DNA of 59,459 bases from Eubacteriales bacterium. Its GTDB lineage: Bacteria > Bacillota > Clostridia > Oscillospirales > CAG-272. The position numbers were made by a program, and so were the translations under genes. How positions within the stretch are numbered: the stretch's first letter is position 1; each line of letters begins with the position of its first letter. This document shows, one piece after another, positions 1,329 to 17,594 of the stretch. The notes beneath the pieces are model-generated. The model searched no databases and was not told the origin of the DNA. It saw only the letters and a list, made by a program, of their open reading frames with translations. Location: assembly GCA_045592305.1 (NCBI GenBank), contig JAZNUO010000108.1, positions 1 through 59,459 on the forward strand. Reading direction: 5' to 3'.

Positions 1329-1628
1329 GCGAGGAAAGCTGTTTTATCGATTCTTTGATTGGGGAAATGTACCGAGGAATGCGATCAGCAGCAAATCATT
1401 TCTCTTATTTCTTTTACAGAACTTGTCTTCGATAATATAGCTTTCTCTATTTATGCTCAATTGCAATTGCTTCTCTCACTATATCGAGAATCTCTTGAAA
1501 AGTTGTCACACGCTATTTGGGCATGCAGCTCTCCACCAAGCTGCGTGCCTCTTTCTTTGTCTGTCCTGCTATGCTATCTGGAGATCAAAATTTTTATATA
1601 GATTCCTAACCTAAATGCAAAACAACCA

Positions 1629-2042: not shown

Positions 2043-2726
2043 TCAAACTTCGTCGTTCAACCAATCAAACACGGTGTTGTCGGATTGGCTCATACTGACG
2101 CTCAACATTTCAAACAGTTTCACAAAGACATCCATATTGGTAATGCACTTAGCCTTAACTTTAGGAGAAAACATATCCAGAATGTCCAGCCTTGCGCTTT
2201 CCCCGATACCGATTGGAAGAACCTTCAATCCCTCCGTGTTTACCATATCAGAACACCTCTGAGCCGCATCATAAACAATGTTATCGGCTTCGGTGGGTTG
2301 TCCGTCTGACATGATCATCATAATGGGCTTGTAATGCTCAATACCCGCGTTTCTGTAATACTCTCGCCGCTTTTGCAGAAGGTCAAGCGCCAGTTCGACT
2401 GATGCCCCAAGCGGAGTTCTTCCGTATGCAGTTAAGGGCACAAAGTTGATTTTATCGACACTCGTGTAGCCGTTGATCACTTCCGGCTTTTCACCGCCGC
2501 ATCCAATGAGGCATACATCGCTCATCAATCTTGCATTAGAGTCATTTCGGATGGTTCTGAAAAGTTCCTGAATATTGTTATTGAGTTCATCGATTTTCAC
2601 GACCATGCCTCTGCTGCTCCGGACCTTCTCTGCCATGGAACCGCTCTTGTCCAAAATCAGACACACAGGCAGCTTAATGCCTCCGTTCATGGTAGGCTTG
2701 CTAAAGAAATTAAAACTACTGTCCAT
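2043..2726 (-). CDS. von Willebrand factor A (vWA) domain protein, TerY-like
   Basis: MIDAS motif in LPVCLILDKSGSMAE (DxSxS). The size (227 aa) and alternating hydrophobic-strand/helix pattern are typical of TerY-type vWA proteins. The start overlaps the kinase gene stop by 11 nt. Confidence 0.85.
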   Translation of the reverse strand: MDSSFNFFSKPTMNGGIKLPVCLILDKSGSMAEKVRSSRGMVVKIDELNNNIQELFRTIRNDSNARLMSDVCLIGCGGEKPEVINGYTSVDKINFVPLTAYGRTPLGASVELALDLLQKRREYYRNAGIEHYKPIMMIMSDGQPTEADNIVYDAAQRCSDMVNTEGLKVLPIGIGESARLDILDMFSPKVKAKCITNMDVFVKLFEMLSVSMSQSDNTVFDWLNDEV

Positions 2727-4095
2727 TGTTATTCATCTCCTTTTTGATTTTCTCCAAAAACAGTTGTAATTCCTTAACCCATTCAGACAGGTCTGTGATC
2801 TTTCCCTGCTTGAAATAGTAATAGAAATACTTTCTCATGGATGGCGTCAGAAACATCGCCCACAAAGCCATATCCTCGGACTTGACCTCAATGCCATCAA
2901 CATCAAGGGGATAAAAGAATTGGGATTTGTCCGTGTTTTCGATATCCATATGATCCGGGCTGTATGTATGGTTCTTCATGATCATAATTTCAAACGCCAT
3001 TTTGTTGATGGGATAATACTCGTCTTCCATTGTCCTCAACTGCTTTTTCAGTTCATCCTTTTTGAACACACGCTTAGTATATTCCGGATGGCAAACCGGG
3101 CAGGCATAGTCGTTGATCTGGTAACACCCACAATCAATGAAATAAACCTCACTTGGTGATTTGACCAACACGTTGTCCGGCTTCAAATCGCCGATCAGGA
3201 TTCCCTTGTCATGCAAGTATTTGATGTGCTTCAGAAAATTGTAGCAGATTTCAAATCTTTCAGGGTGCGTATACTCCGAAAAACTTTGTAAGCGGAGGCT
3301 CAGCAGAGTTTCCGCCCCCTTGACTTCGTCCATAACGTAGCCAACAAACACATCATTTACATAGACCAGATCCCGAGGCCAACAAATGAAGGGATTGTAC
3401 AGATTCATCTCTATCATTTCAGATAGCTTTTTGAAATTAACGTAGGTTATGTTTTCCTTTTTGAAAATCTTAACCATCATGTTGTTATATGTTCTGTAAA
3501 CGCTTCCCTCTCCACCGTTTATTTGCGAAGCTATGTTGAGTTTCAGATATCCATACTTGGGAGAATAAACATAGTCAATCCCTGTTGTATCAATTCGGTT
3601 CACATATTCATCTTCTTGCAAATAAAACGCATCTTTTGGAAGTGTAGTCTGTGCCTGATCCTGCCATTCTTCAAGCCCTTGTTCGGTTACAAAATAAAAC
3701 CTCAGTTTTGAGCTGGCGGCTGTTAATTCCTTAAAAACGCCATACACACTCTCACGCTGCACGATGATGCTACATTCCGCATCTTTCTTCTGCTTGGAAA
3801 ACATAGGTTCAAGCAGCGTATAGTCCAAATAACTGTTGGTTTCAATTCTCTGAAGCATTCCCTTCTGCTCGAGAATATCTATCAAACCTTCCAGCAAATA
3901 CGCTTCTTTGAATTTGAGATCCGCTTTATATTTTTCTATTCTTTCCTCAATGCCACTATCCACAAAGACAGTAAGATTCTGCCCATTGGCTTCAATAGAT
4001 TCAACGTAATCTTTCAGGAGCATATAGAAATTAGGGAAAATAAAAACGGTATCTTCAATAAAGACGTAATTGTCTTTCGATTTCTTTATCTCCAT
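2716..4095 (-). CDS. Eukaryote-like Ser/Thr protein kinase with an N-terminal extension of about 200 aa
   Basis: Gly-loop and Lys: INGGEGSVYRTYNNMMVKIF. Catalytic loop: HDKGILIGDLKPDNVLV. A DFG-equivalent FIDCGC follows. The gene overlaps the PP2C gene by 10 nt. Confidence 0.85.
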   Translation of the reverse strand: MEIKKSKDNYVFIEDTVFIFPNFYMLLKDYVESIEANGQNLTVFVDSGIEERIEKYKADLKFKEAYLLEGLIDILEQKGMLQRIETNSYLDYTLLEPMFSKQKKDAECSIIVQRESVYGVFKELTAASSKLRFYFVTEQGLEEWQDQAQTTLPKDAFYLQEDEYVNRIDTTGIDYVYSPKYGYLKLNIASQINGGEGSVYRTYNNMMVKIFKKENITYVNFKKLSEMIEMNLYNPFICWPRDLVYVNDVFVGYVMDEVKGAETLLSLRLQSFSEYTHPERFEICYNFLKHIKYLHDKGILIGDLKPDNVLVKSPSEVYFIDCGCYQINDYACPVCHPEYTKRVFKKDELKKQLRTMEDEYYPINKMAFEIMIMKNHTYSPDHMDIENTDKSQFFYPLDVDGIEVKSEDMALWAMFLTPSMRKYFYYYFKQGKITDLSEWVKELQLFLEKIKKEMNNNGQ

Positions 4096-5045
4096 TTCAT
4101 ATACTCCTTAACTTCGTCCACCCCCGTAAACTCTGCCTTTGCGGATATGGAAGGATCAACAAAATAGCAATACTGCGACTTGCGGATAATTTGTTTTGAG
4201 GATTTAATGCCCGCCAACAAATACTCTGCGTAATCTTCCGTAATCTTTCCTGTATCAGCATCTTCCAACGTCAAAATGTTCAAGCTCAAATCGTCAGTAG
4301 AATAGTTTGAAATGATCTCTCTTAAATATCTGGAAATGATTTTCTCATAGTCGTCCGGCTTATGATTCTGAAAATTTGAAAACAGTTTATAAACATTGTC
4401 GTCAACGGCAGTGCCATTGAACAGAACCGTCCCGGCTCCGTCCGAGGTCAGCAAAACTCCCTTTAAATTGTCAATGCTTCCAGCCTGTAAATGAAGATGT
4501 TCTGCTGCATTCGTATCGGGAATGAAGAATGTGATGTTACTTCTTTCTCCATTTTCGGGTTCCGAAATAACCTTGACCCGATACGCGTTGTTTTCGTTGT
4601 AGACGCCCGCAATGACACCATCTCCAATATGTCCCATAATGTAATGGTTGTCTTTGATGGCGAAAAACAGGAGCGTAGATGACAGCTCTTCCACGGAGAT
4701 ATTCAACTCCAAAGCCTTTGCTTTCAAAGTCGTCATAAGAGCCGTAACGATCACCTTGCTAAGACCGGCCATGTTCTTTTTATGCTTGGCTTGATTTGTC
4801 TTTTCCTCTTCAAAGCACAGAAGGTAATCAATAAACTTCTCTGAAAGCAAGTCACAGATTTTTTTGCATACGATCTCCGCTCCAATCTCCGATTTAGATT
4901 TGGATCCCGCACCGTCAGCAAGGGCAACGGCCTTCACTCCGTTGGCTTCGGCATAAAACGTTCTGTCCTGGCAGACCATACCGCGCGATATGTGCATTTT
5001 CCCGATCTCGTATGTTTGGACATTCTTCCACTTTTCAATGATCAT
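4086..5045 (-). CDS. PP2C-family Ser/Thr phosphatase
   Basis: PP2C-like acidic motifs ALADGAGS, GHIGDGVIAG and LLTSDGAG. The start at 5045 gives an ATGA overlap with the stop of the upstream vWA gene. Alternative in-frame starts are at 5057 and 5138. Confidence 0.8.
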   Translation of the reverse strand: MIIEKWKNVQTYEIGKMHISRGMVCQDRTFYAEANGVKAVALADGAGSKSKSEIGAEIVCKKICDLLSEKFIDYLLCFEEEKTNQAKHKKNMAGLSKVIVTALMTTLKAKALELNISVEELSSTLLFFAIKDNHYIMGHIGDGVIAGVYNENNAYRVKVISEPENGERSNITFFIPDTNAAEHLHLQAGSIDNLKGVLLTSDGAGTVLFNGTAVDDNVYKLFSNFQNHKPDDYEKIISRYLREIISNYSTDDLSLNILTLEDADTGKITEDYAEYLLAGIKSSKQIIRKSQYCYFVDPSISAKAEFTGVDEVKEYMKWR

Positions 5046-6109
5046 TTTACCGTCCATCCATCGTAAGAATTTGTGGGAATTCCAAAGGACTGATCTATAG
5101 GGGTTTCTACTCTTTTTTGCGCTATGATATAGATCCAATTGAATAAATCGTCATACATTGCATCTTTGATCGTTATAAACTTCTTGAGTTTGCGAAGTAG
5201 AACCAAGCTCCCATCGAATTCGCGATCCGACAGAGCAAACGGAAAATATGACAGCTTTCCTTCCCCTGCCATTTTCTTGATGATTTCAACCGAATTGCTC
5301 ATATCCCCAAAGTTTTCACCATTTGACAGCACAATCAGCCATGGCTTATAGTATGGGATCCCTTGCTTTTGAAGCTCACCGATTCTTTCTTCAAGCTTTT
5401 CCAGACTTTTGGAAATGGACAAATCCAGAAACGGAATCCCCCCGGCGAAGAATTTCTCCTTCACGATCGCAGTTTCATCAAACGGCTTTGCGACGGTACA
5501 GTTGAATCCGCTAAACAGCGTTGTCTCAAATTCAATTCGGTCAGTCAGGCCTTCGCTTTGAAGGCGCTCGTTGAAGGCAAACACCGCTTTCTTTAGACGA
5601 TCCATTTTTTCGCCCTTCATAGAAGCGCTATTATCTATGGATATACTGATTAAAAGTTTTGCTTTTTTTCCTTCTTCCGACATTTCTTCTACCTCTATTT
5701 CAACAGGAAAGCCCTTTTCGATTCTCCAAAAATTGACCTTCCCGTTGAATCCATTCTTTTTTATGACTTTTAGTTCCTTTTTGGCGTATTCCTTGTCCTC
5801 GGTAAAGATGCACATATTGCCGGCCGGCAATTCAGTAACAGATGATACTTCAATCACCAGGCCCATTTTCCGGTAATGCTCCAGAACAAACAAGCCGGCA
5901 AACGCGGCGTTTTCGCTCTCCGAAAACGAACAATACCTTTGCAGACACTCTCTCGCGGTCTTTTTTACGTACACCTTTTTGTGGCTCGCAATCAATGCGC
6001 CATACAGATCAAGCAGGAAAAAGTCCTTTTGCCCGGCCATAAGCGATGACACATCAATCAGTAATGAGGAGGCTGTAACAATGCTTTCCAGTGATGTTTT
6101 CATACGCAT
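5042..6109 (-). CDS. Second vWA-domain protein with an N-terminal extension of about 160 aa
   Basis: MIDAS motif in LLISISIDNSASMKGE. The C-terminal half reads vWA-like (YKPWLIVLSNGENFGD). The start is 6109, or 6103, which has better SD spacing from AAGGA. It lies 5 nt after the stop of the 593-aa gene. Confidence 0.8.
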   Translation of the reverse strand: MRMKTSLESIVTASSLLIDVSSLMAGQKDFFLLDLYGALIASHKKVYVKKTARECLQRYCSFSESENAAFAGLFVLEHYRKMGLVIEVSSVTELPAGNMCIFTEDKEYAKKELKVIKKNGFNGKVNFWRIEKGFPVEIEVEEMSEEGKKAKLLISISIDNSASMKGEKMDRLKKAVFAFNERLQSEGLTDRIEFETTLFSGFNCTVAKPFDETAIVKEKFFAGGIPFLDLSISKSLEKLEERIGELQKQGIPYYKPWLIVLSNGENFGDMSNSVEIIKKMAGEGKLSYFPFALSDREFDGSLVLLRKLKKFITIKDAMYDDLFNWIYIIAQKRVETPIDQSFGIPTNSYDGWTVK

Positions 6110-6114
6110 ATTCC

Positions 6115-7896
6115 TTACAAAGTTCTGAAAGCGTCCAGCATCAATCTGCTACTTTCCACATGCATGATCACGTTTCGCAAGACTGGGAGATTGTTGGCAG
6201 CATACAGATTTTCAATAATCTCTTTGCCGTAAAGAACAAGATTGCTTTTACTGCTTACGCTCATGGGATAGTATTCGAAGCTATCACACAACCTACCGCA
6301 TGATATCATGCTTTCACAAACAGTTTTGGCTTTAGCCTTATCCTTGATACTGACCAGCATCAGGCCATCAAGTAAGGCTGCCAAGCAAAGTAACCCTCTC
6401 GCGTTCAGGCACTTTTTGTATTCGACAAACAGCCACTTCACTTTTTCCGCAACCACCTGTGTCACACAGTCCTTCCCGTATACGAAATAGTAAAGCAAGG
6501 ACTTAAAGCATTTATCCAAAACAGGCTGCAGATCTGCCAAAGCCCGATTGTACATGGCATCCAAATGGACTTGATTCTCCAAATAGCTCTCTTGCTCAAT
6601 GATTCGATTCACGCTGTCGAGTGAGGTTTTATCTTTTGCATAGTAATTACGCAACGTAAGAGCGATACTCTCATAACGGGTAGATACATCGTTATATCCG
6701 CTGTCAAGCTGAAGCAAATGGTAGTATCCTTCAAACAACTCAGAGGTTTTATTGGAAACTGCCGCCAGATCAAGGGCTGTCCTGATGCCTTCACAATCCA
6801 CCTTGGTACAGAACACGAGATACTTGTTCGCCAATTTGTAATTGTCCTTCTTGATTATGATCGTAATGAACTCGATCATTTCTTTTTCCGAAACATACCT
6901 GTTTACTGAACGATCAAACAGGAAAATATACCCTTTATCCTCACAACGAAGTAGGACTTGATAGTTGACCAGGTTGTTATGATACAGATAGTTTACAACC
7001 TCATCCCGATTTGCTTCATGGGTGGCGATATACTCCAGAATCACTTGTGTGTACTTGGCGTCCTTGAACAAACCATGATTCCGTAGCATGTCCGCTACTC
7101 GAATGAGTGCTTGATTATCCTTGAACCGTGCTTTTTCAAAGACATGAACGATGTACGCGGAAAGTAGTCTTATCTTCTCCTCATGAATCTCGGTACAGAT
7201 CTTTTCCAATTCAATGCCGGTGATTGGATTGAAAAGATTGTATGTATGCGCACTAATGCTCCCGCTTTTCAAATAATCAATGAGTGACGTGGTAAAAAAG
7301 CTCGTCATTGTATTATCAAAGCTGTTTGCAATGCTTTCTTGCGCCACGATAATGTCCGATAACGGCTTATCAATTTCCTCCAGCCCATCGATTCCCTTGT
7401 AGTTCAAAACCAGCGTATCACAAGTGTCATGGATTTTCGTTACATCGCTCCTGATTTCATCCCGTCTTGCTTTTAAGACACGGATGAAATCAAGGAGCTT
7501 TTGTTTGTTGATGAAGCTGTTACTGATGCTCTCGTGTATGGAATCAAACTCCGATAGGTCTCGGTTATACCCCTTACTAAAGTAGTACAAAATGAGGCTT
7601 GTTCCGACCCATACAGTCATGGCGCCGAAAATAAACAGATAGATCTTCAAAACCTCGTTCCGGAGAATCAGAAACGAAACCACGATGGTCAGGGCCAAAT
7701 ACACGATGCCAAGAATCACAAGTGCTTTATGAGGCTCAAAGGTGAAATAACTGCGATAAACCATGTAATTCTCATAATTTATCGCCTTCCTTTTGTGCAG
7801 GATCACCTCGCGCGAGGAATACAGCACAACCATGACAATACCCGCGACAACAAAAAGTGCTGCCAAGATAATAAAGTATTGTTCTACGATTTCCAT
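6115..7896 (-). CDS. Membrane protein of unknown function (about 4 N-terminal TM helices plus a helical domain of about 470 aa)
   Basis: Hydrophobic segments IILAALFVVAGIVMVVL, ALVILGIVYLALTIVVSFLIL and IYLFIFGAMTVWVGTSLILYYF. I recognise no catalytic motif. The ATG is 1 nt after the TAA of the giant gene, with SD GAAGGAAGG inside that gene's end. Confidence 0.7.
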   Translation of the reverse strand: MEIVEQYFIILAALFVVAGIVMVVLYSSREVILHKRKAINYENYMVYRSYFTFEPHKALVILGIVYLALTIVVSFLILRNEVLKIYLFIFGAMTVWVGTSLILYYFSKGYNRDLSEFDSIHESISNSFINKQKLLDFIRVLKARRDEIRSDVTKIHDTCDTLVLNYKGIDGLEEIDKPLSDIIVAQESIANSFDNTMTSFFTTSLIDYLKSGSISAHTYNLFNPITGIELEKICTEIHEEKIRLLSAYIVHVFEKARFKDNQALIRVADMLRNHGLFKDAKYTQVILEYIATHEANRDEVVNYLYHNNLVNYQVLLRCEDKGYIFLFDRSVNRYVSEKEMIEFITIIIKKDNYKLANKYLVFCTKVDCEGIRTALDLAAVSNKTSELFEGYYHLLQLDSGYNDVSTRYESIALTLRNYYAKDKTSLDSVNRIIEQESYLENQVHLDAMYNRALADLQPVLDKCFKSLLYYFVYGKDCVTQVVAEKVKWLFVEYKKCLNARGLLCLAALLDGLMLVSIKDKAKAKTVCESMISCGRLCDSFEYYPMSVSSKSNLVLYGKEIIENLYAANNLPVLRNVIMHVESSRLMLDAFRTL

Positions 7897-7897: not shown

Positions 7898-10800
7898 TTA
7901 CAGCACCTTCCTTCGCGAAATCATTATGACGACAAACGCGACAAGCATCAAGCCAACCACGACAGACATCATAATCACATACGAATAGTTGGGATTATTG
8001 TAGGTAAAGGATATCTCCTCAACGTAACCGTTTGCGCCTTCAATTCTCAGCGTGTGAGTTCCGTGCTTGTTTACGACCGTATCCTCACTGATGATCACTC
8101 CGTCAAGGTACATGGTAGCATCCAATTTCTCAATGGAAATTTTCTCATCCCTCTCTTCACCGTTTGCGACAGAAAGTGTGGGCGCAATGAAAATTTCAAT
8201 GGTTCGTTCATATCCGTTGGCGCCCTGTACCGTGATAACATTATTACCAATCGAGGTGATTTCCGTCATATTCTCGATCTTGGTCCCGTTCACAAAGAGC
8301 GTTGCATTCGGTATATCAATCAACGCGCTGTCCTGATACTTGTAATCAGCGTTTCCGCTATAGGTATGCTCAATCGTGAACTCAGCGCGCGAAACGTATC
8401 CGTTTGCTCCTCTGTATTCAACAGTATGATTGCCAACTTGATTGAACAATTCGCCATAGGTATATTTCATACCATCGACATACAGTTCGATTTCCGCATT
8501 GGCAAAATTGAAATTCTTCAGACTCTCGGCATATGCGGTCACGTCCACCGTGATGGTAAAAGAACAAATCTGCTCATAGTTGGGGCCGCTTACCTTAAGC
8601 GTATGGTGTCCGATTTCGGTGATCAAGGTTCCCGACACATACGGTTCGTCATCCAGATACCACTGGCCTATTGATGTGTTCGCCATTACGCTTCCGTTGT
8701 ATTCCTGACCGTCAGCAACGCCGGACAGCACAGCAACGACAGAAAATGAATATTCGTTCGAGTATCCGTTTGTTCCGAATACTGTCAGCGTGTAACTTCC
8801 TGGGGTCGTCAACTCATAGAGACCTGAAATTTCCAAATCATTCAAAACGGCAGAACAATCCGGGATATCGATGGTCATGGCTCTGTCATAAACATTCCCA
8901 TCGGTAATGTTCAGACTTTCCGTAACAGTGAAATCTATGGATGTCTGATATCCGTTCGCCCCCTCAATCACCATAGTATGATGGCCAATTTTTTGTGTGG
9001 ACGAATGGACATTGACCGAAGCTCCATCCAACGTTGCCGTACAATCTGCAGGAATGTCCCATGTTACAGAAGAGCTATACGAGCCACCTTCTTCTATACC
9101 CAAAACTTTTGGGGTCACGGTGAAGGTCATCGAATAGGTGTAATCCCCACTTCCCTTCATAGTCAGCGTGTGATTACCCACGGATTTAATTACATCTCCA
9201 GTCTTGTACGCCACACCATCGATATAGAATGTACCGTTGAGAGTTGTGACGGAAACCTGTTCGCCATAGATTCCATTGTGTTCCACACCATTCAGTTTTG
9301 GAATAACGGTTATCTCATAGGAATTGGTGTATCCATTCGAGCCAATTACTTGCAGCTCATGAATGCCGATTGCGTAGTATGCGGTATTGCTGGAATAGTT
9401 TTTACCGTCTATGAGAATGGAGAAGGTATCGGGATCAAATTCAAGCTTGAACGCTTCAGTGTACTGCACCGCAGAAATGGTCGAGCTGTCTTCCCGCAAG
9501 GTAAACTTAATCAGCTTTTCATACCCGTTTACGCCAATTATTCGCACCGTATGATGGCCAACCTTGGTATACAGAGCACCGTCAGTATACTCTTCGCCAT
9601 CAATAGTCAGCACCGCAGTAGGAGTCGCCTTAATAGAAACACCTCCGAAGACAACGGCATTATCCTCAATACCGTTAATGAGCGGATCAACTGTGATGGT
9701 GAACGCCTTCGTGTATCCACCGTGTCCATTAATAACAAGCTTATTGTTTCCCACGGTTTTGATCTCGGTGCCTTGAACGTACGGGCTACCGTTCAGCGTT
9801 ATAGTCATCTCTGAACCAAGAATTGTTGGTTGGAAGGATTGCGAATAACTATCTCGCAAGTTTTCAATGACCGGCTCAAGTGTAAACGAGATTGCGTGGA
9901 CATATCCGTTGGTTCCGTGAATAGTCAAGGTGTGGTTGCCAACGGCTGTAATAGGCACATTCAAGTCAATCTCCACACCGTTCAGTTTAACTGTTCCACC
10001 GTTGACAATAGGCGAAACACTGCCTTGATAGATCTGATCCTGGCTCAATCCGTTGACAACAGGTTCAACGGTGAATACATATTCCTTCGTGTACCCCCCA
10101 ACACCGATAATTCTCAATCTATGAACACCCACTTGACTCTCCAAAATGGGAGTGCCGGATGTAAATGTTTTTCCATCCAAAGTGGCTGTAGCATGGTTGA
10201 ACACAGGAATCACGTTGGTCACATATTGGCCGCCGTTTTCTACACCTTGAATATTTGCGTCAATTGTGAAAGTTATTTCGTGCGTATAGCCACCAACACC
10301 CTCAATTTTCAAGACATGATGGCCTACATTTGCCACCGAGGTTCCGGACACAAATGCCTCACCATTCAGATAGATGGTTTCCGCATTAATGACAGGAGCA
10401 ATAGACGAGTTGTAAATACCTTCATTGGTAACGTTCTTCAGATCCGGTCCAATGGTAAAGTGGTACTCATTGGTATACCCATTTGTGCCCTTGACTACGA
10501 GGGTATAGTTGCCAACAAGATAAACTCTCGTATGGTCGTCCACTTCCTGTCCGTTCAGAGCTACGGAAACCACATGATTGCAATCCAGTTGAAGGCTCGT
10601 ATACTCTTTTCCGTCCACAAGACCGGGAATTTTTTCGGTCAGGATAAAGGTATACTCCTTCTCGTACCCATTCTCACCCACGATGCGCAGATAATGCAAC
10701 CCGACCGTGTAATAATCGGTCCCACTTTCGTAAGCAATGTCATCAATAAACAAATCCGCATGAGGGATCGAAATATTGATCATATACTCGGTAGTAAATC

Positions 10801-13800
10801 CATCATCGAAGTTCTGATAGCCTGTGGTATCTTTTATGACAGGATCTTCGGCAACGGTAAAGCCAAAGGATTCCTCATAGCCATTCGTTCCCTCAATTTT
10901 GATGGTGTGATGCCCAAGAGAAACAATGCGTTCTCCATTGTACCGTTCACCGTTCAGATAAAGCGTGGCGTTTTCAATCAAACGAACCGCAATTTCTTTG
11001 CTGAACACTTTGTCTCTGTACTCTTCAACACCAGTAGGCGTAACGGTAAAGTCATAGCGCAAAATGTACCCGTTAACACCAACCATTTCGAGGGTGTGAT
11101 ATCCAACTGCACAGATTGGTGTTCCGCTCACATAGACCGCTCCGTCCAAAAGTGCTTCACAACGATCGAACTTCGGAGTCACAACTCCGACGTAGATTCC
11201 ATCATCTACAATGTCTGAAACATCGGGAATCACCGTGAATTTGAAGTCTTTCTCGTAACCGCCAACGCCCATGACCGTTAGTGTATGATAGCCTACCGTG
11301 TCAATGGTGGACTGGAAAACATAGGGCTGACCATCCAGCAGGACATAGGTGTTTTCGTCCTGATACGTGTTGGTATTATCAAGATAGATGTCAGGAACAA
11401 ACTTGGTTCCGCTTCCGTTGGATTTCAAATTCAACTTGAATTTGGCGCAATCGTCACCGCGGGAGGTAGACCCATCTTTTCGGTACGATATCGTCATCAC
11501 CTCGCCGGCGTTCAACGAAATTTCGCGTTCTGCCCACCCGGGGCTTCCCGACACATTAACGATTTCATTTCCGCCTTTCACGACAATGAGTTTATCGTAA
11601 TTTGCCTCAGACGAGACAAAATAATTCAAAGTGAGTTCAATATCAGTTTTTGCTGTTATAGTAAATACTGATGTAGAATTATTCGACTTATTCGTTGAAG
11701 TATAGACATCACCGCTCAAGGTAAATGGATAGGAACTGTCGTTCTTGATCGAAATATTTGAAGCATCAAGGAGCTTCTCAACAACGGGATCAATCACGAA
11801 TTCAATGGTTTCCACATAACCGTTTGCGCCATGAATTTCAAACTTATGATTCCCAACAACATAGCAATACGTATCGTTTGAAAACTCCCGACCGTCAAGG
11901 AAAATGCCTTCGTAATAGTCTTCAGACAAAACGCTGCTGCTGGTGCTGCTACTTCTCAGTCTCAGATAAACCCCATTTTTTGAAGTATAACTTGAACCAT
12001 TAGAAACACCGCTCCAATTTGCCTTGATGGTAAAATTCTTTTCTACCGTGTAGCCGTTCGCTCCTTCAATCGTCAGGGTGTGATAACCAATCGAATAGAC
12101 GGTTTTCGAACCGGTCAGAACCTCACCGTCAAGCTTTACCACGGTGCTGCTGAAATTGGAAAGATAATCCACGCTGACAGACTTCGAGTAGTTTACTTGC
12201 TCGCCATCAGTTATGCTCGTATTTTCCTTTCTCGTAAAAGATACGGTTTTGCTATAACCGTTTACGCCAATGATCTCAATCTCATGATTGCCAATATCAT
12301 AGATATATGATCCGGACGAGTAGGGATTGCCATTCAACTTCAAGGTTGCGTAATCACAGTAAAAACGAATATAGCTCGTGGTTTCCGTACCGTCATCCGC
12401 TCCTGAGAAGGAAGGGTTCACCGTGAATTCATAGGAATAAACATACCCATTTGTTCCGATAATCTCAACCTTATGGTATCCAACGTCATATACCCACGCG
12501 CCGGATGACCAGTTCGCTCCATTCAGCTTGATGGTTGCGTAGCTGCAGGAAATTCGGGTCTGTCCTGGTAAATACTCCTTCCCCGCTTCCGCGCCGGTGA
12601 TAGAAGGCAGAATGGTAAACTGATATTCGGAAACATATCCATTCACGCCCATAACCGTCAGGGTATGATAGCCAACGTCGTATATGGTGCTCCCGCTGGA
12701 GTAATCTTTTCCGTCCAGCATAAGCGAAGCGTTGGAAACAGATGGCTTTATACTTCCTGTGTACTCTTTACCGTTTTCAAGATTGCTGATCCTTTCTGTA
12801 ACGGTGAAGGTCAGTTCGTTTTCATATCCGTTCACACCCACGATTTTCATTGTGTGGTTGCCAACCTGATAAACAGTTGTTCCGCTTGAAAAGGCGTTGC
12901 CGTCGAGATAGAGGGTCCCGTTGCTTGTCTTAGGTACCACCGAATACTCATAGCGTCCGTTTGCCTCGATGTTCTCCCATATCTCTTTGACCGTAAAGGT
13001 GATCTCATAGTTGAACCCATTGAGATTGGCAACCGTAAGCGTGTGGTAGCCAACCTCTGTGATTGGGGATCCACTCACATACGCCTTGCCGTCCAAAAGA
13101 AGATTATTCCATTCAATTACAGGGGTTACAGAGCCTTCATATACCTGCCCGTTTTCAACTCCGCTTATGGAGGGAAAAATGTAGAATGTTACATCTGTTC
13201 TCTCCCCACCGTAAATGAACGAGAGCGTATTCTTTCCTATCGTGGTAATAGGGGCTCCCACCGTATATGCTTCACCATTGATCTCCATGTCGCAAACATT
13301 GTGAGTGATCGACATGGATTGCATATAGACGCCGTTTGCCTTGATTTCAAACTCGTCCGAAAGAACGACGAAATTGAGGGTTTGCTTATATCCCCCAATA
13401 CCGGTAACAACAAGCCTGTACACACCTTCTTCCGTAATTGCCGTTCCGGAAACATACTCTTTACCGTTCAAGGTCAACTCCCCTCCTCTTATGAGAGGCG
13501 TGACAGAACCGTAATAGACGGTCGCGTTGTGGATCCCTTGTATTTCGGGAACAATGTCAAAAGAGATCACTTCCTCATGACCGTTTTCTCCTTTGATCTT
13601 CAGCGTGTAGGTTCCCACATCGGAAAGAATCGTCCCGGAAGTAAATGCTTGACCGTTCAGCTCGATTATCCCACCAATAGCATTTACTGCCGTTCCGGAG
13701 GCGTACTTCCCGCCATTCTCCACATTGACTGTCGCGCAAATTGAGAAGCGGACCGTTTTTGTATAACCATTTTCTCCATCGACAGTCAAAACATAATCCC

Positions 13801-16738
13801 CAACTTTGGAGAGTGTGATTTCACCGGACACGTTCTCCCCATTGAGTGTCAGGGAGCAATTTTGGAAATCAATGACACACTCCGTGAGTCTTCCGTCAAA
13901 AATGGAATAATCGGGTTCAATAACAAAGTTATAGGTAAAGGTACTGTCTCCGTCCGTAAGCACGAGCTGATAATTGCCAACCTTCTCGATTACGGTATCC
14001 GGAAGAACCTCAACTCCGTTCAGGGTCGCGGTGCCCACAAATTTTAGAATTACCAAATCGTTGTAATGCGCTCCGTTCTCGATATTTGCACCTGTAACAA
14101 GCGTAAAAGTAATGGTTTCATAATAACCGTTTTCTCCGATGATCGTCAACGTGTATTCTCCCGACGTATTGATCACCGTGCCACTCGTATAGGGATTATT
14201 ATTCAGAACAAGAGTGCCGTTTGACACAGCGGGAATAATAGATTGATTGTAAGAACCTCCCTGAACAACGTTTACTTCATGAGGTCTGACCACAAAATGA
14301 ATATCCTCTCTGAACCCATCTGCGCCAAGGACCGTGATCGCGTAATAGCCGGGAATATCGATCGTTGTTCCACTAACAAAAGGCTGACCGTTCAGGGTTA
14401 TGATCCCACCAGAAATAACAGGAGTTACCTCACCAATGTAGGTTTTCCCTTGTTCTACATTCTCCACGCTCAGATTAACGGTAAACTGATACGTGACCGA
14501 ATAACCGTTTTCGCCGGTGATGACAAGGGCGTTGCGGCCAGGGGTGGTAATCAAGGTACCGCTCTCGTAGGCTTCGCCGTTTAAGGTTGCCGAACCCTTG
14601 GTGAAGGTAGGGGTCACTTCTTTCTCATAGATCCCGCCGTCGACAAGGTCTGAGACAACCGTTTCCACAACAAAATTCACGGTCTTTTGGTAACCGTTTG
14701 TTCCCGTAATCACAAGTGCATAGTTGCCGCAATTCTCGATTGGCTCGTTATGGTATGCGACGCCATTCAAGGTCATATTTTCGCCGTTTACAGCGGGGTA
14801 GAGGGTTTCATAGTATGTCCGGCCATCCTCAAGACCAACAATCGTAGTTTCAATCGTAAAGTTTATTGTTTCCTTAAAGCCATTTGCGCCTTTGATGATC
14901 AAAATATGATTGCCCTTGGTTGTGATGGGGGTCTCGCTCGTATAAGGATCACCGTCAAGCGTAATCTCCCCTCCGGAAACAGTTGGAACTACGGGCGTAT
15001 AATAAATGGTATCATTATCAACACCGTCAACTGTCAGCTCAATGGTGAAATTGATGGTCTTGGTATATCCGTTTTCTCCCGTGATAACCATTTTGCTGGC
15101 ACCGGGAATATTATACACGTCTCCGTAAGTGTAGTCCACTCCATTGATCTTTACAATTCCGCCTTCCACGTCGACTGCTTTGCTCCCGCTATAGGTTGCG
15201 CCATCTTCAAAAGTAGTGACGGGTTCAACAACTATGTTGCGGCCAATGTAATAAGTTTTGATGCCTTCATCGTCAACGGCAGTAAAGGTATAGTACGCCT
15301 GATAATTACCAGCTTGTGTTTTGTCAACCTGAGAATAATCGCACGTGAATGTTCCCAGAGATTTACCCGATGTATCATAGATTCCGACACCGTTGTAATA
15401 ATCAATCTCTTCATTTAGGTCGCAATGTAAGTCAAATGTATTTGCAAACAGCTTGATGCTGCTGATCTTTACTAATCCGCAGTAATAGTATGACGAATAA
15501 TACTGGCCGCAATAATACACGTTTCCATCATCGTCCAAATACAAATCCCTTGCAGTAAACGTCTCTTGTGTTTTTGTTTCTCCTACATATTCCAAATCAT
15601 CATTTAAGAAAACGATCGCTCGACCGTATTTTGCGACAACGTTTGTGCCGTTAACATAGATCTGCTGAATGGTACTTTCTCTATATGTAAAAGACTTTAC
15701 GATATTAAAATTACCGTCCATTTTATATATGGTTTTGCCATTGCAAAAATAGATGTGTTCGCCTTGACTCTCTTCAATGCAAGTGCTTAAAGTAAGACCG
15801 CTTTCGAAGGAAGATGTTTCCAGCGTTTCCATATCCATTCTATAAAATGTGCCAGTACTCTGTAGGGAAAATATACATCCATCTAAAACAAGCGGATTAT
15901 TGACAGGAAAACTTGTGGTTACTTGATCAGTAGACAGTTGTCTTGTGTCCGGATGATAATCCAAAACGAAAAAATTGCTCTCTCCGGACGCAAATAACGC
16001 ATATTGATTCTCATTTATTTTTTGAGTTTTAGTATATGGAGTAGTCCCCAGTGAACTATATGCAATCTTATCGCCATTGGTCCCGTCAATAATTGTAGCA
16101 TAATAGTAACCATAATAGCTGTCATAAGATAAAACTAAAAAATTACCGTCTGACAATTCCATGGCATCATACAAAGTGCTTGTCCCATAATAATAATAAA
16201 CATATTGAGAGTTTTCCCACTGCACTTCCATGTTAGAAGAATACTTGCAGAAAAACAATCGATAGTAAGACCCATTATACAACTGTCCTGCCAGTAAGAA
16301 TCCTCCATCTCTTGTGGGAACAATTCTCTCGTATCTATTACTTGAAGAACTGTAGCTGGAATACCGTTTTGTATATCTGTTCTCTTCGAGTATGTTCTCA
16401 AAAACAATGACTGTTCTGCTTGCTGTCGCCGTTTGATCCGCTCCGTTGGAAACACGATAAGACACCGTGTACGTACCCACCGCGTCTTTGTTCACCGTAT
16501 TATCAATAACGATTCGATCAGAGAGGTCCCCTTCAACCGAGTCATGTGCTATTGCACCGAATTCCTTGTATTCAGTCCCTTTCTGCAGATATATTGTCGT
16601 GTCGCCAATCAACGACAATGAAAGAGTGGATTCGTCTTCGGCAGCAGCTACCGAAACCCAGCCAATACCAATCACCATCAAGAAAGTGATAAAAAGTATT
16701 GAAGACACCAGAGTTTGTTTTTTGATTTGACGTTTCAT
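7898..16738 (-). CDS. Giant cell-surface repeat protein (about 2,946 aa): signal peptide, DUF5011-type Ig domain, Tyr-rich beta-propeller-like region, about 35 tandem ~70-aa repeats, C-terminal TM anchor
   Basis: Signal peptide MKRQIKKQTLVSSILFITFLMVIGIGWVSVAAAE. Ig domain TEYKEFGAIAHDSVEGDLSDRIVIDNTVNKDAVGTYTVSYRVSNGADQTATASRTVIV. The repeat consensus is roughly G-x-x-Y-x-x-x-V-T-P-x(5)-A-T-L-N-G-x-x-Y-x-S-G-T-x-I-x-x-x-G-x-H-T-L-x-I-x-G-x-N-G-Y-x-x-x-x-x-F-T-V. The C-terminal anchor is YVIMMSVVVGLMLVAFVVIMISRRKVL. I prefer the ATG at 16738 over the TTG at 16762. Confidence 0.85.
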   Translation of the reverse strand: MKRQIKKQTLVSSILFITFLMVIGIGWVSVAAAEDESTLSLSLIGDTTIYLQKGTEYKEFGAIAHDSVEGDLSDRIVIDNTVNKDAVGTYTVSYRVSNGADQTATASRTVIVFENILEENRYTKRYSSYSSSSNRYERIVPTRDGGFLLAGQLYNGSYYRLFFCKYSSNMEVQWENSQYVYYYYGTSTLYDAMELSDGNFLVLSYDSYYGYYYATIIDGTNGDKIAYSSLGTTPYTKTQKINENQYALFASGESNFFVLDYHPDTRQLSTDQVTTSFPVNNPLVLDGCIFSLQSTGTFYRMDMETLETSSFESGLTLSTCIEESQGEHIYFCNGKTIYKMDGNFNIVKSFTYRESTIQQIYVNGTNVVAKYGRAIVFLNDDLEYVGETKTQETFTARDLYLDDDGNVYYCGQYYSSYYYCGLVKISSIKLFANTFDLHCDLNEEIDYYNGVGIYDTSGKSLGTFTCDYSQVDKTQAGNYQAYYTFTAVDDEGIKTYYIGRNIVVEPVTTFEDGATYSGSKAVDVEGGIVKINGVDYTYGDVYNIPGASKMVITGENGYTKTINFTIELTVDGVDNDTIYYTPVVPTVSGGEITLDGDPYTSETPITTKGNHILIIKGANGFKETINFTIETTIVGLEDGRTYYETLYPAVNGENMTLNGVAYHNEPIENCGNYALVITGTNGYQKTVNFVVETVVSDLVDGGIYEKEVTPTFTKGSATLNGEAYESGTLITTPGRNALVITGENGYSVTYQFTVNLSVENVEQGKTYIGEVTPVISGGIITLNGQPFVSGTTIDIPGYYAITVLGADGFREDIHFVVRPHEVNVVQGGSYNQSIIPAVSNGTLVLNNNPYTSGTVINTSGEYTLTIIGENGYYETITFTLVTGANIENGAHYNDLVILKFVGTATLNGVEVLPDTVIEKVGNYQLVLTDGDSTFTYNFVIEPDYSIFDGRLTECVIDFQNCSLTLNGENVSGEITLSKVGDYVLTVDGENGYTKTVRFSICATVNVENGGKYASGTAVNAIGGIIELNGQAFTSGTILSDVGTYTLKIKGENGHEEVISFDIVPEIQGIHNATVYYGSVTPLIRGGELTLNGKEYVSGTAITEEGVYRLVVTGIGGYKQTLNFVVLSDEFEIKANGVYMQSMSITHNVCDMEINGEAYTVGAPITTIGKNTLSFIYGGERTDVTFYIFPSISGVENGQVYEGSVTPVIEWNNLLLDGKAYVSGSPITEVGYHTLTVANLNGFNYEITFTVKEIWENIEANGRYEYSVVPKTSNGTLYLDGNAFSSGTTVYQVGNHTMKIVGVNGYENELTFTVTERISNLENGKEYTGSIKPSVSNASLMLDGKDYSSGSTIYDVGYHTLTVMGVNGYVSEYQFTILPSITGAEAGKEYLPGQTRISCSYATIKLNGANWSSGAWVYDVGYHKVEIIGTNGYVYSYEFTVNPSFSGADDGTETTSYIRFYCDYATLKLNGNPYSSGSYIYDIGNHEIEIIGVNGYSKTVSFTRKENTSITDGEQVNYSKSVSVDYLSNFSSTVVKLDGEVLTGSKTVYSIGYHTLTIEGANGYTVEKNFTIKANWSGVSNGSSYTSKNGVYLRLRSSSTSSSVLSEDYYEGIFLDGREFSNDTYCYVVGNHKFEIHGANGYVETIEFVIDPVVEKLLDASNISIKNDSSYPFTLSGDVYTSTNKSNNSTSVFTITAKTDIELTLNYFVSSEANYDKLIVVKGGNEIVNVSGSPGWAEREISLNAGEVMTISYRKDGSTSRGDDCAKFKLNLKSNGSGTKFVPDIYLDNTNTYQDENTYVLLDGQPYVFQSTIDTVGYHTLTVMGVGGYEKDFKFTVIPDVSDIVDDGIYVGVVTPKFDRCEALLDGAVYVSGTPICAVGYHTLEMVGVNGYILRYDFTVTPTGVEEYRDKVFSKEIAVRLIENATLYLNGERYNGERIVSLGHHTIKIEGTNGYEESFGFTVAEDPVIKDTTGYQNFDDGFTTEYMINISIPHADLFIDDIAYESGTDYYTVGLHYLRIVGENGYEKEYTFILTEKIPGLVDGKEYTSLQLDCNHVVSVALNGQEVDDHTRVYLVGNYTLVVKGTNGYTNEYHFTIGPDLKNVTNEGIYNSSIAPVINAETIYLNGEAFVSGTSVANVGHHVLKIEGVGGYTHEITFTIDANIQGVENGGQYVTNVIPVFNHATATLDGKTFTSGTPILESQVGVHRLRIIGVGGYTKEYVFTVEPVVNGLSQDQIYQGSVSPIVNGGTVKLNGVEIDLNVPITAVGNHTLTIHGTNGYVHAISFTLEPVIENLRDSYSQSFQPTILGSEMTITLNGSPYVQGTEIKTVGNNKLVINGHGGYTKAFTITVDPLINGIEDNAVVFGGVSIKATPTAVLTIDGEEYTDGALYTKVGHHTVRIIGVNGYEKLIKFTLREDSSTISAVQYTEAFKLEFDPDTFSILIDGKNYSSNTAYYAIGIHELQVIGSNGYTNSYEITVIPKLNGVEHNGIYGEQVSVTTLNGTFYIDGVAYKTGDVIKSVGNHTLTMKGSGDYTYSMTFTVTPKVLGIEEGGSYSSSVTWDIPADCTATLDGASVNVHSSTQKIGHHTMVIEGANGYQTSIDFTVTESLNITDGNVYDRAMTIDIPDCSAVLNDLEISGLYELTTPGSYTLTVFGTNGYSNEYSFSVVAVLSGVADGQEYNGSVMANTSIGQWYLDDEPYVSGTLITEIGHHTLKVSGPNYEQICSFTITVDVTAYAESLKNFNFANAEIELYVDGMKYTYGELFNQVGNHTVEYRGANGYVSRAEFTIEHTYSGNADYKYQDSALIDIPNATLFVNGTKIENMTEITSIGNNVITVQGANGYERTIEIFIAPTLSVANGEERDEKISIEKLDATMYLDGVIISEDTVVNKHGTHTLRIEGANGYVEEISFTYNNPNYSYVIMMSVVVGLMLVAFVVIMISRRKVL
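8005..15250 (-). repeat. Coding tandem-repeat array (about 210-nt period, diverged copies) inside the giant surface gene
   Basis: A recurring ...NGY..x..F(T/V)(V/I) block terminus was counted about 36 times in the translation. DNA copies are diverged, with no long identical stretches seen. The array is interrupted at about 11390-11780 by a non-repeat domain. Confidence 0.75.
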
Positions 16739-16758
16739 GTCTGACCCTCGTTTCTTAA

Positions 16759-17481
16759 TCAAAGCTTCTTTCGAATCTGAGAAATGATCTCTTCTACCGA
16801 CAGCCCGCTATTATTCGCCAACAAAATGGAGATTGAGCCGCTGATTTCATCAATGGCTTTTTGCTCCTGATCAGTTGTGTATTTGGTAGGATTGGGTTTT
16901 TTATCAACTGCGGTTTCAAGTTTCAGATAATCCTCTTCTGAGTATGAAAAATCTTTTGCCTGTACCTTTTGATCAAAAATGAAAAGACTGATGGCCATCA
17001 TTTTTTCCGCCTCGTTCAGGTCGGTCAAGTGGACCTTATCTTTCCACAGCAGAAAATACTTGAAGATGCAGTGTAGAAGGCCGCTATCTTTCATCAACAG
17101 CTTCGCCAGTGTGTCATACTCGTCTTTTGTAAAGCGTTCCAAAATCAAATCCTCTCCGAGCACGTCCAATACCGCTTGTGCTCGATTGGCTCCATTCGTT
17201 TCGCCGGAAGACATCTGCGGCGCACTTTGAGAGTAGGATGACATGTCAGTTTTTTTGCCGTAGTTCTCAATCACATAGGCGTATCGTCTTTCGAAGTCCT
17301 CCTTCGTCATCTGCGCATCACCGAATAAGAAATCAAAAATCTTTTGAAACAAATTGTTTGAAAGTCTTACTCCGCTATCATAGTTTCGAATATAGGTATC
17401 AAGAGTAGGACGTGAAATATTCAGGCTGTCCGCAAATTCGGTCAATAAAATATTGTTTCTTTTCAATACCGCTTTGATCAT
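16759..17481 (-). CDS. HTH-domain transcriptional regulator (first gene of the island operon)
   Basis: N-terminus MIKAVLKRNNILLTEFADSLNISRPTLDTYIRNYDSG looks like an HTH. SD GAGGA lies 5 nt upstream of the ATG at 17481. The longer ORF-track start at 17667 would swallow the consensus promoter at 17566-17594. The stop overlaps the start region of the giant gene. Confidence 0.6.
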   Translation of the reverse strand: MIKAVLKRNNILLTEFADSLNISRPTLDTYIRNYDSGVRLSNNLFQKIFDFLFGDAQMTKEDFERRYAYVIENYGKKTDMSSYSQSAPQMSSGETNGANRAQAVLDVLGEDLILERFTKDEYDTLAKLLMKDSGLLHCIFKYFLLWKDKVHLTDLNEAEKMMAISLFIFDQKVQAKDFSYSEEDYLKLETAVDKKPNPTKYTTDQEQKAIDEISGSISILLANNSGLSVEEIISQIRKKL

Positions 17482-17565
17482 GTTTTCCTCGCATTCAAAC
17501 CGTTTTAGATGGTTTTTTGTAATATAATCTAAAATTGTAATATTTTTTACATTTTTTACACCATC

Positions 17566-17594
17566 ATTATATCGCAATATATACGGTTTGTCAA
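17566..17594 (-). promoter_or_regulatory. Perfect-consensus sigma-A promoter driving the island operon
   Basis: The minus strand reads TTGACA (17594-17589), a 17-nt spacer, then TATAAT (17571-17566). Confidence 0.65.

Follow-up and report, generated by a model that had tools for sequence, protein, structure and literature searches.

A giant propeller-tipped surface protein as the probable sensor arm of a mobile, membrane-spanning signalling operon in gut Clostridia

We have analysed a 59,459-nucleotide (nt) stretch of DNA from a Eubacteriales bacterium (class Clostridia; NCBI GenBank assembly GCA_045592305.1, contig JAZNUO010000108.1), referred to below at its full length as the window, and describe here an operon on its minus strand in which the gene for a giant, repeat-containing surface protein stands between the gene for a putative regulator and genes for a membrane protein, two von Willebrand factor A-type (vWA) proteins, a PP2C phosphatase, a Ser/Thr kinase and a zinc-ribbon protein. 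The reading that we favour, and which we consider probable, is that these eight genes make up a mobile, self-regulated signalling system that spans the membrane, with the giant protein as the extracellular sensor arm of a threat-sensing switch. That the rod-like protein and the vWA/kinase/phosphatase cassette form one functional unit seems to us very likely. The system is real and conserved, and it resembles a kind that has only just been described experimentally; here it is known from sequence, structural models and comparison, and a sensing function is suggested by the architecture of the giant protein, the hypervariability of its head, a defence-island context and analogy.

RESULTS

Gene order and its conservation across loci

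The genes of the operon, in the order of transcription, are as follows (aa, amino acids; TM, transmembrane).

16759..17481, minus strand: putative DNA-binding regulator of 240 aa, first gene of the operon (ATG at 17481, Shine-Dalgarno sequence GAGGAAAA)
7898..16738, minus strand: giant gene, putative sensor, 2,946 aa from the ATG at 16738 (the database entry, P0002, also has 2,946 aa)
6115..7896, minus strand: putative membrane partner of 593 aa, here called TM590, with three predicted TM helices, a coiled coil and a cytoplasmic all-alpha solenoid
5042..6109, minus strand: vWA protein 1, 355 aa, an N-terminal extension of about 150 aa and a vWA-like domain (DxSxS motif DNSAS at residue 159)
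4086..5057, minus strand: PP2C phosphatase, 323 aa from a conserved ATG (Pfam PP2C_2, E=8.1e-37)
2716..4095, minus strand: Ser/Thr kinase, 459 aa, with an N-terminal extension of about 190 aa (Pfam Pkinase, E=2.4e-8, residues 194-325)
2043..2726, minus strand: vWA protein 2, putatively TerY-like, 227 aa (metal ion-dependent adhesion site motif DKSGS; Pfam VWA, E=4.3e-5)
1629..2027, minus strand: zinc-ribbon protein, 132 aa, last gene of the operon (Pfam Zn_Ribbon_1, Q/P-rich linker, glycine-rich TM helices at residues 78-96 and 113-131)

The genes are tightly packed. As an earlier note on this DNA, made from its letters alone, had described, the TAA of the giant gene (7900-7898) is followed after 1 nt by the ATG of the 593-aa gene at 7896, whose Shine-Dalgarno sequence (GAAGGAAGGTG, 7914-7904) lies within the last codons of the giant gene, those for the Arg and Lys residues of its tail. 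These conserved junction signals suggest that the 593-aa gene is translationally coupled to the giant gene. A 5-nt gap then leads to the gene for the 355-aa vWA-like protein, overlaps of 16, 10 and 11 nt lead on to the PP2C, kinase and second vWA genes, and a 15-nt gap leads to the zinc-ribbon gene. Between 17560 and 1629 the same note had seen no terminator-like hairpin, which holds for strong hairpins on the minus strand: we found there only stems of 5-6 bp and one AT-rich stem of 13 bp, and the 23 weak hairpins are at chance frequency (17.2 +/- 4.5 in shuffled sequences).

The evidence that carries the unity of the system comes from other genomes. In 14 of 15 independent loci, with kinase identities down to 33%, a repeat protein with the same anchor is encoded directly upstream of a TM protein of about 590 aa and of the vWA, PP2C, kinase and vWA genes. 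The full order of regulator, repeat protein, TM protein of about 590 aa, vWA, PP2C, kinase, vWA and zinc-ribbon TM protein was found in the window and in the loci designated L001, L002, L004, L006, L008, L010 and L011, and likewise in L012, L014, L015, L016, L017 and L022. Kinase identity and the size of the repeat protein vary as follows.

L001, L002, L004, L008, L010, L011 and L022 (close relatives): kinase 75-89%; repeat protein 2,642-3,277 aa (that of L022 ends at the contig edge)
L006: kinase 61%; repeat protein 1,946 aa, 23 repeats
L012: kinase 56%; repeat protein 3,028 aa
L017: kinase 45%; repeat protein 1,035 aa, 11 repeats
L015: kinase 43%; repeat protein 1,678 aa, 20 repeats
L014: kinase 38%; repeat protein 381 aa, 3-5 repeats
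L016: kinase 33%; repeat protein at least 555 aa (contig edge)

The repeat protein thus ranges over the loci from 381 to 3,277 aa and from 3 to about 40 repeats, a ten-fold range on a constant anchor. In all 14 loci it has a signal peptide, the same 63-aa repeat, an F/Y-x-x-N-N/P-N motif, a TM helix and a basic tail (RRKVL, RRRIV, KRRQIK, RKWRIR, KRRRVI or MRRRVI). Its junction with the TM protein is everywhere a 1-nt gap or an ATGA-type overlap, with the Arg/Lys codons of the tail forming the Shine-Dalgarno sequence in all loci, and the junction spacings are fixed (1 nt, then -16, -10 and -11). A repeat protein also lies upstream in every context that was examined for the 19 homologues of TM590 from a word search and the 77 from a profile search, all of them uniform in length. 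The flanks differ in every locus and comprise conjugation genes, housekeeping genes, recombinases or helicases, which shows that the eight genes travel as a block.

From these comparisons the repeat protein appears to be an ancestral core component of the system. The earlier claim that rod and cassette are one unit and not chance neighbours is borne out by the shared order and junction spacings and by the anchor, which is kept even where the repeat protein has shrunk to 381 aa. The note had allowed for the case that related cassettes never stand beside such repeat proteins, and the opposite was found. That an unrelated surface protein and a signalling cassette merely came to adjoin on an island has nothing in its favour beyond the fact that islands collect unrelated genes. 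It is contradicted by the shared arrangement of 14 of the 15 loci, whose flanks are unrelated while junctions and anchor are kept, and we rejected this explanation and give it next to no credence.

The two parts could also be inherited together without acting together, the rods serving as a passive shield or decoy and the vWA, PP2C and kinase proteins as an ordinary defence module like the TerY-P systems discussed below, both kept for their shared protection of the island. Defence genes do cluster without interacting, and TerY-P-like modules work as stand-alone systems (PMC11090510). In L013 (kinase 45%), moreover, the cassette is accompanied by only a one-repeat remnant of the sensor that lacks the TM helix, so that nearly no sensor is left; either the cassette can persist without a sensor or this copy is decaying. 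A shield, however, needs no conserved TM helix and tail beside a dedicated TM partner, the TM protein of about 590 aa was never seen without its pair of neighbours, and even where kinase identity has fallen to 33% and the flanks have changed, the junction, the anchor motif and the Shine-Dalgarno sequence within the codons of the tail are still there. We regard such a division into two layers as improbable.

Architecture of the giant protein

The gene itself is intact. Its longest open frame, 7898..16762 on the minus strand, starts at a TTG (16762) and runs for 2,954 codons without a stop, while relatives and the database entry use the ATG at 16738, which has a GAGGG Shine-Dalgarno sequence 6 nt before it. 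A protein of about 2,950 aa, as first proposed, results with either start (2,946 aa for the ATG and 2,954 aa for the TTG). The proposed overlap of the regulator's stop with the start of the giant gene exists for the TTG of the longest frame only; the conserved ATG lies 20 nt past that stop. We found about 25 full-length orthologues of 2,642-3,277 aa. Along the protein we distinguish the following parts.

16643..16738, minus strand: Sec-type signal peptide of about 32 aa with a hydrophobic core (MKRQIKK...VAAA/EDE), read from the sequence
16403..16615, minus strand: first immunoglobulin (Ig)-like domain (DUF5011 / Bact_surface_Ig-like; Pfam PF16403, residues 50-120, E=1.4e-15)
15461..16387, minus strand: predicted seven-bladed beta-propeller head, residues 118-426 (AlphaFold: 28 strands in seven four-stranded blades, per-residue confidence (pLDDT) mostly >90)
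15224..15451, minus strand: second Ig-like domain, between propeller and stalk (model strands 430-505), conserved
7988..15193, minus strand: stalk of 36 diverged repeats of about 63 aa, residues 524-2925, from an iterated hidden Markov model search
11402..11788, minus strand: 129-aa non-repeat insert midway in the stalk, residues 1659-1787, which breaks the period as unit 19
7898..8002, minus strand: conserved anchor with the FTYNNPN juxtamembrane motif, a TM helix, the RRKVL tail and the stop

The signal peptide and the DUF5011-type domain had both been recognized from the letters and are present. Hydropathy peaks over residues 14-32, and residues 1-35 of the model have low pLDDT. The first Ig domain, whose beta strands lie at 39-113 in the AlphaFold model, is 79-99% identical among the closest pairs of orthologues and flanks the swapped segment described in the next section. 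What had been noticed as a Tyr-rich region with propeller-like blades (12% Tyr, against 7.5% in the whole protein) is predicted to fold as a seven-bladed beta-propeller. The AlphaFold model, for which 23 orthologues were used, covers residues 1-522 with a mean pLDDT of 85 and a predicted TM-score (pTM) of 0.80. When the head was searched with Foldseek, the propellers of WD40, BamB and Vps18 came up at E~1e-10; neither the PDB nor the viral structures yielded more than generic propellers, so that the fold gives no functional clue.

The stalk repeats follow the consensus YxxSVxPxxxxGxxxLNGxxYxSGTxIxxxGxHTLxIxGxNGYxxxxxFTV and share a mean pairwise identity of 31%. The diverged tandem array of the earlier note was thus recovered, with 36 units of about 63 aa in place of about 35 of about 70 aa, and with the insert in addition. 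Tandem Repeats Finder found no array at the DNA level. As the repeats are diverged and the orthologues collinear, we excluded an assembly artefact. Among orthologues the repeats are kept position for position at 65-80% identity, which indicates that the array is old and stable within the close family. Pfam matches of the repeats are weak and to Ig families (BiPBP_C with a summed 56.5 bits, Big_11, Y_Y_Y), and neither the repeat profile nor the giant protein found anything useful among PDB sequences. An Ig-like fold of the repeats is likely from these matches; if each were an Ig-like domain of 3.5-4 nm, the stalk would measure about 130 nm and reach well past a Gram-positive wall. Orthologues keep the 129-aa insert, for which Pfam gave no match.

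The protein ends in ...FTYNNPNYSY, a hydrophobic helix of 21 residues and SRRKVL. This is its single C-terminal TM helix, and no LPXTG-like sorting signal ([LN]P.[TSA][GNA]) occurs anywhere in the giant protein, in line with what had been proposed. Because a protein exported by the Sec pathway would be held by a single C-terminal membrane helix, the N-terminal Ig/propeller/Ig head would be its distal tip, and the predicted topology has the C-terminus in the membrane with a cytoplasmic tail of five residues and the propeller far out.

Variation of the propeller head

The head is the variable part of the system. Identity to orthologues is 30-50% in the head, with values of 41-50% in the comparison against the window, and 65-80% in the stalk; TM590 is 68-76%, vWA protein 1 65-77% and the PP2C, kinase and vWA protein 2 77-93% identical. 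The segment of low identity coincides with the modelled propeller. Among 23 orthologues (253 pairs), the propeller has a median pairwise identity of 32% and the stalk one of 76%, and the two are uncorrelated (r=0.13). In 11 of the 13 pairs whose stalks are at least 90% identical, the propellers are less than 50% identical, and conversely three proteins with stalks 89-93% identical have propellers that are 98-99% identical.

A comparison of L001 with L008 shows how such pairs may arise. The two are about 100% identical in nucleotides through the regulator, the signal peptide and the first Ig domain, fall to 45-55% at nt ~290-1340 of the giant gene and then rise again to 97-100%, with sharp nucleotide breakpoints around a swapped segment of about 1 kb. 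In the encoded proteins, identity is 98% over the stalk and 100% over the anchor but 36% over the propeller. Synonymous sites in the propeller are saturated, and the divergence reflects a swap of segments and not selection on point mutations. The heads therefore appear to be discrete alleles that are exchanged by recombination between the conserved Ig domains, a pattern that we take as the probable signature of a recognition module, whether in an arms race or in a recognition polymorphism. In L017, the relative of the sensor (3018-6125, 1,035 aa) has a head with a GLUG motif (Pfam E=3e-6) in place of DUF5011 and propeller, which shows that in the wider family heads are exchanged between domain types as well as between alleles; the protein of L014 has no head.

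Discrete propeller alleles shuffled among near-identical stalks are also what polymorphic recognition loci show, and the propellers of neighbouring cells might bind one another only when they carry the same allele, the switch then reporting sister or stranger and controlling social behaviour. The operon contains no toxin/immunity pair, though, and a system that is rare and accessory (0 of 40 related genomes, at least 3 of 185,579 species genomes; see below) would be a poor basis for recognition across a population, and we consider kin or self recognition very unlikely.

Giant Ig-repeat adhesins of Gram-positive bacteria, such as the sortase-anchored MSCRAMM proteins, SasG and Ebh-type rods, have a signal peptide, a rod of diverged beta domains and a distal binding head. 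The giant protein shares the signal peptide, the rod of small beta domains and the distal head with them, and its Ig repeats with a head at the tip are the layout of many giant adhesins. It could be a regulated adhesin that sticks the cell to the host, a food particle or a partner, the cassette either controlling its display, clustering or shedding from the inside out or reporting attachment. Allelic variation of the head is known in adhesins under phage or immune pressure too, and L001 adjoins conjugation genes (MobL, TraG-like), a setting in which an adhesin for mating would be plausible. Unlike those adhesins, the giant protein has no LPXTG or wall anchor; its TM anchor is conserved together with a dedicated signalling operon, and its stalk length varies ten-fold. 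The headless relative of 381 aa would hardly clear the wall with its 3-5 repeats, yet it keeps the anchor and the cassette. The neighbours of the operon are chiefly of the defence type, the conjugative locus being just one, and the look-alike that has been studied experimentally, EsrA, is a sensor. An adhesin is therefore unlikely in our view, and we prefer to see the giant protein as a sensor arm.

The membrane partner and the cytoplasmic proteins

The model of TM590 (AlphaFold, pLDDT 74) has three N-terminal TM helices, a coiled coil at about 131-211 and an all-helical cytoplasmic domain at about 227-531. The earlier note had counted four TM helices; hydropathy and the model agree on three, the fourth hydrophobic helix (497-519) lying inside the soluble helical domain. 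The protein has no match in Pfam, PADLOC, NCBIfam or PDB sequences, and its model has no Foldseek match in the PDB (best E=0.26). Judged from sequence and model, the fold would be new or generic helical and the protein family new. A profile search of 1.84 billion representative proteins gave 77 clusters at 50% identity, almost all of about 574-615 aa. The distant TM protein of L014 aligns to the TM590 family of the window over 554 columns (hhalign probability 98.7%).

The window copy of vWA protein 1 has no Pfam match, its orthologue in L013 has a weak VWA match, and its position is conserved across loci with a gap of 5-14 nt. The 16-nt overlap of the PP2C gene with the gene upstream is kept in all loci; no PADLOC model matched the phosphatase. 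The kinase scores 34.1 bits in the Pfam Pkinase search against a cut-off of 31.7, and it has a GDLKPDN catalytic loop (non-RD), DCG in place of DFG and a conserved 10-nt overlap. Its PADLOC matches are the kinase parts of MkoA, mad6 and PD-T4-6, not a TerY-P kinase model. After the DCG, at residues ~321-340, lies a cluster of Cys residues (DCGCYQINDYACPVCH, CxC-x9-CxxC) that could be a zinc site in the activation segment. The second vWA protein passes the Pfam VWA cut-off narrowly (24.3 against 23.8 bits) and matches the PADLOC TerY model at E=0.0033 only, with no single stretch passing; at 88-93% identity it is the most conserved gene of the set.

Relatives such as L001 (25048-25913) carry two zinc-ribbon membrane paralogues with near-identical N-terminal halves, one of 145 aa with about 3-4 TM helices and one of 132 aa with two glycine-rich TM helices. 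The single gene of the window has the position of the first and a C-terminal half of the second type (72% against 51% identity), which looks like the result of a deletion by recombination between the paralogues.

Promoter, operator and regulator

The operon is preceded by strong signals of transcription control.

17566..17594, minus strand: sigma-70 consensus promoter TTGACA-17-TATAAT
17536..17551: operator-like palindrome TGTAAAAAATATTACA, just 3' of the -10 box

The perfect promoter of the earlier note is read directly at 17594..17566 on the minus strand and is the sole 12/12 match in 19.5 kb. At the same place before the regulator, L001, L002, L004, L006 and L011 have a promoter that fits the consensus at 12/12 or 11/12 positions. 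Extra half-sites (TGTAAAA / TTACAAAA) flank the palindrome on both sides, at about 17510-17560, and a palindrome of the TGTAAA-N4-TTTACA type with extra half-sites lies beside the promoter in every locus that has upstream sequence. In the close family it follows the -10 box directly; in the distant loci L006, L015 and L017 it immediately precedes the -35 box. The regulator may bind this palindrome, and the combination of a perfect consensus promoter with an operator over the start site would suggest tight autorepression of the operon.

Two copies of the palindrome with one mismatch each lie inside the giant gene (10160-10175 and 15686-15701), so that the window has 3 copies where shuffled sequences lead one to expect 0.05; these could be auxiliary operator sites or chance occurrences in AT-rich coding DNA. 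The palindrome is not enriched over the genome (5 sites, against 3 for a control pattern), and we therefore claim no wider regulon.

The regulator consists of a conserved N-terminal part of about 75 aa with a helix-turn-helix (HTH)-like pattern, a Ser/Thr-rich linker and a variable C-terminal domain. Within the close family its orthologues share 70-86% identity, and over the N-terminal 80 aa about 55% is still found in L015 and L017. It has no match in Pfam, NCBIfam or PDB sequences, so that the name of HTH regulator given to it earlier is upheld by the sequence pattern, the conserved N-terminal 75 residues and the conserved palindrome near the promoter, and not by any of those databases. The linker (KKTDMSSYSQSAPQMSSGETNG, residues ~76-100), which is probably disordered, follows the conserved N-terminal domain in all relatives including the distant ones; by analogy with the phosphorylated disordered region of EsrG it is a plausible candidate for a region of phosphorylation sites.

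Genomic context and rarity

The operon lies in a block of low GC content (39-47% at about 1,600-17,600, against 50-56% on either side), next to which the following features were found.

18084-19115: integrase gene (Pfam Phage_integrase), adjoining the low-GC island
1519..1550: GC-rich hairpin of 12 bp, candidate two-way terminator between the operon and the convergent Fic gene
414-1328, plus strand: gene for an HTH-Fic protein, convergent with the operon (PADLOC PDC-S04, E=1.2e-109; SoFic, 1e-19)

Two terminator-like hairpins upstream of the promoter (18014-17987 and 17803-17786) close off the integrase gene. At their place, before the regulator, L002 (8770-9039) and L004 (4683-4958) have a small DUF6809 gene. 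The hairpin at 1519..1550 was scored on the plus strand; on the minus strand the stem is not followed by a T-run. A tRNA-like 3' end with CCA and a terminator lies beside the integrase gene (17979-18083). Since ARAGORN found no complete tRNA in the whole window it is at most a fragment, and possibly the remnant of an attachment site.

The system is rare. TM590 was not found in 24 congeneric and 16 other related genomes. A pattern scan of 185,579 GTDB species genomes found the system in at least 3, all of uncultured Clostridia/Eubacteriales (from yak caecum, rabbit and another gut sample), and a scan of JGI metagenomes added one further locus; as these scans use short peptide patterns, their counts are lower bounds. 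It was not found by the pattern scan in IMG/VR viral contigs, a result that neither supports nor contradicts a sensor function.

Among the neighbours of the other loci are BrxL (E=3.6e-156), an IetA-like ATPase and a TIR protein in L016, PDC-S37/Hhe (4e-227) in L017, PDC-S31 in L002, PDC-S01 in L004, a DrmD-like helicase in L006, and a Schlafen/AlbA-type protein with HsdR fragments in L015. L013 has an IetA-like ATPase and a second kinase/PP2C/vWA set as neighbours; the region after its sensor-less cassette (12304-21079) encodes Band_7 proteins, the IetA-like AAA ATPase, a kinase, a PP2C, a vWA and an RCC1-repeat protein. By association, these defence-type neighbourhoods would support a role of the operon in conflict.

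DISCUSSION

The closest functional parallel to the operon is the Esr (epibiont sensing and response) pathway of Actinomycetes. In Schaalia odontolytica its sensor EsrA1 combines a Sec signal with a WD40 propeller at the N-terminus and 14 Ig-like repeats and lacks an LPXTG motif, and it is required for the response to a Saccharibacteria epibiont, including the threonine phosphorylation of an FHA protein (bioRxiv 10.64898/2026.09.08.750141). The cluster also encodes a MoxR protein, a vWA protein, a transglutaminase, kinases and a phosphatase, and the propeller is its divergent part. Esr was reported to be 'effectively confined' to Actinomycetes, in a search for which all Esr1 orthologues had to be present (Wang et al., bioRxiv 10.64898/2026.09.08.750141, Sept 2026). 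The giant protein matches this sensor in architecture only, that is, in its Sec signal, N-terminal propeller, filament of Ig-like repeats and lack of an LPXTG motif. The propeller diverges from the rest in both systems (here 32% against 76% for the stalk), both clusters contain vWA protein(s), a Ser/Thr kinase and a phosphatase, and both may be read as sensing threats from the outside in. The operon differs from Esr in its partner with three TM helices and an alpha-solenoid, its putatively TerY-like vWA proteins, its zinc-ribbon membrane proteins and its putative DNA-binding regulator, in having 36 stalk repeats where EsrA1 has 14, and in its host, Clostridia and not Actinomycetes. On present evidence, and by analogy, the operon would work like Esr but is not Esr by its defining parts. 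The claim of the earlier note that such coupling had not been described has thus been overtaken in part: a filament with a propeller that signals through vWA, kinase and phosphatase proteins is now known from Actinomycetes, while the clostridial system differs in its connecting parts and lies outside that work.

The cytoplasmic cassette recalls the TerY-P triad, in which a TerY-like vWA protein goes together with a PP2C and with a kinase that has a zinc ribbon fused to it (Anantharaman, Iyer & Aravind 2012; PMC11090510), and of which TerY-P-like modules with an OB fold are stand-alone anti-phage systems (Gao et al. 2020; PMC11090510). Here, a putatively TerY-like vWA protein, a PP2C and a Ser/Thr kinase share one operon, a zinc ribbon is associated with them and defence genes are found around them. 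In contrast to the triad, Pfam finds no zinc ribbon or OB fold at the C-terminus of the kinase, the zinc ribbon being on the separate 132-aa protein two genes downstream; a second vWA protein with an N-terminal extension is present; and the cassette is linked to a membrane partner and to a putative sensor outside the cell, neither of which has a counterpart in the described triads. The cassette is related to TerY-P in kind and is not a demonstrated member. In the MoxR-vWA ternary conflict systems, the variable sensor domains include beta-propellers (Kaur, Burroughs, Iyer & Aravind 2020, PMC7159879). They follow the same logic, in which a conflict system joins a variable sensing module to a vWA protein and signalling enzymes, but the operon has no MoxR or other AAA+, VMAP or iSTAND component, and their propeller is intracellular, as a fusion with the vWA protein, whereas ours would sit on a surface filament.

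Several of our results weigh against a threat sensor, in addition to the sensor-less cassette of L013. Three parts that define Esr are missing: no AAA/MoxR match was found by Pfam in the eight operon proteins, where Esr has a MoxR AAA+ ATPase (all close loci have the same gene set without an ATPase); no FHA match was found in them, where Esr has an FHA output protein; and Pfam found no counterpart of the transglutaminase EsrD that fixes the Esr sensor to the surface, the giant protein having its own TM helix instead. We also tried the cassette as a TerY-P system with PADLOC and had to reject this, as the TerY model was matched at E=0.003 only, the PP2C matched nothing and the kinase matched other kinase models. 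Hypervariable heads would also suit adhesins under immune or phage pressure, and kin recognition. Finally, many of the 'defence' neighbours belong to PADLOC candidate families only, and mobile islands are generally enriched for such genes.

With these points in mind, a mechanism for the threat-sensing switch can be proposed. The anchor of the giant protein would pair with the three-TM-helix protein TM590 in the membrane. When the propeller is engaged outside the wall by a phage particle, an epibiont or a competing cell, a signal would pass to the cytoplasmic scaffold of TM590, which may shift the balance of kinase and phosphatase acting on the vWA proteins, a switch of the TerY-P type. The output could go to the regulator with its Ser/Thr-rich linker on the operon's own promoter, to the glycine-rich zinc-ribbon membrane proteins, or to both. 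In its most far-reaching form, this proposal would make the system a mobile class of threat receptor that is new in Firmicutes, a tripwire filament of adjustable length (3 to about 40 repeats, up to about 130 nm) whose exchangeable propeller tip notices a phage, epibiont or competitor while it is still outside the cell, and which fires a TerY-P-type switch through a new transducer and is convergent with Esr or very distantly related to it; we put this forward tentatively, as a possibility that we would not yet call probable.

To our knowledge, nearly all known bacterial defence systems sense infection inside the cell. Sensing from the outside in by a propeller-tipped surface filament was shown only in 2026, in Actinobacteria, and was reported to be confined there. 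The same design in gut Clostridia with different connecting parts, namely an anchor of its own, a new transducer and neither MoxR nor FHA, suggests a general design principle. If the sensor reading is true, TerY-P-like modules gain their first defined input, and the family described here is a concrete candidate for the input of a TerY-P-type switch. Swapped propeller alleles on identical stalks, and stalks of 3 to about 40 repeats on one anchor, provide ready variants in specificity and in length, and the propeller alleles could mark the phages or epibionts that a gut strain has met.

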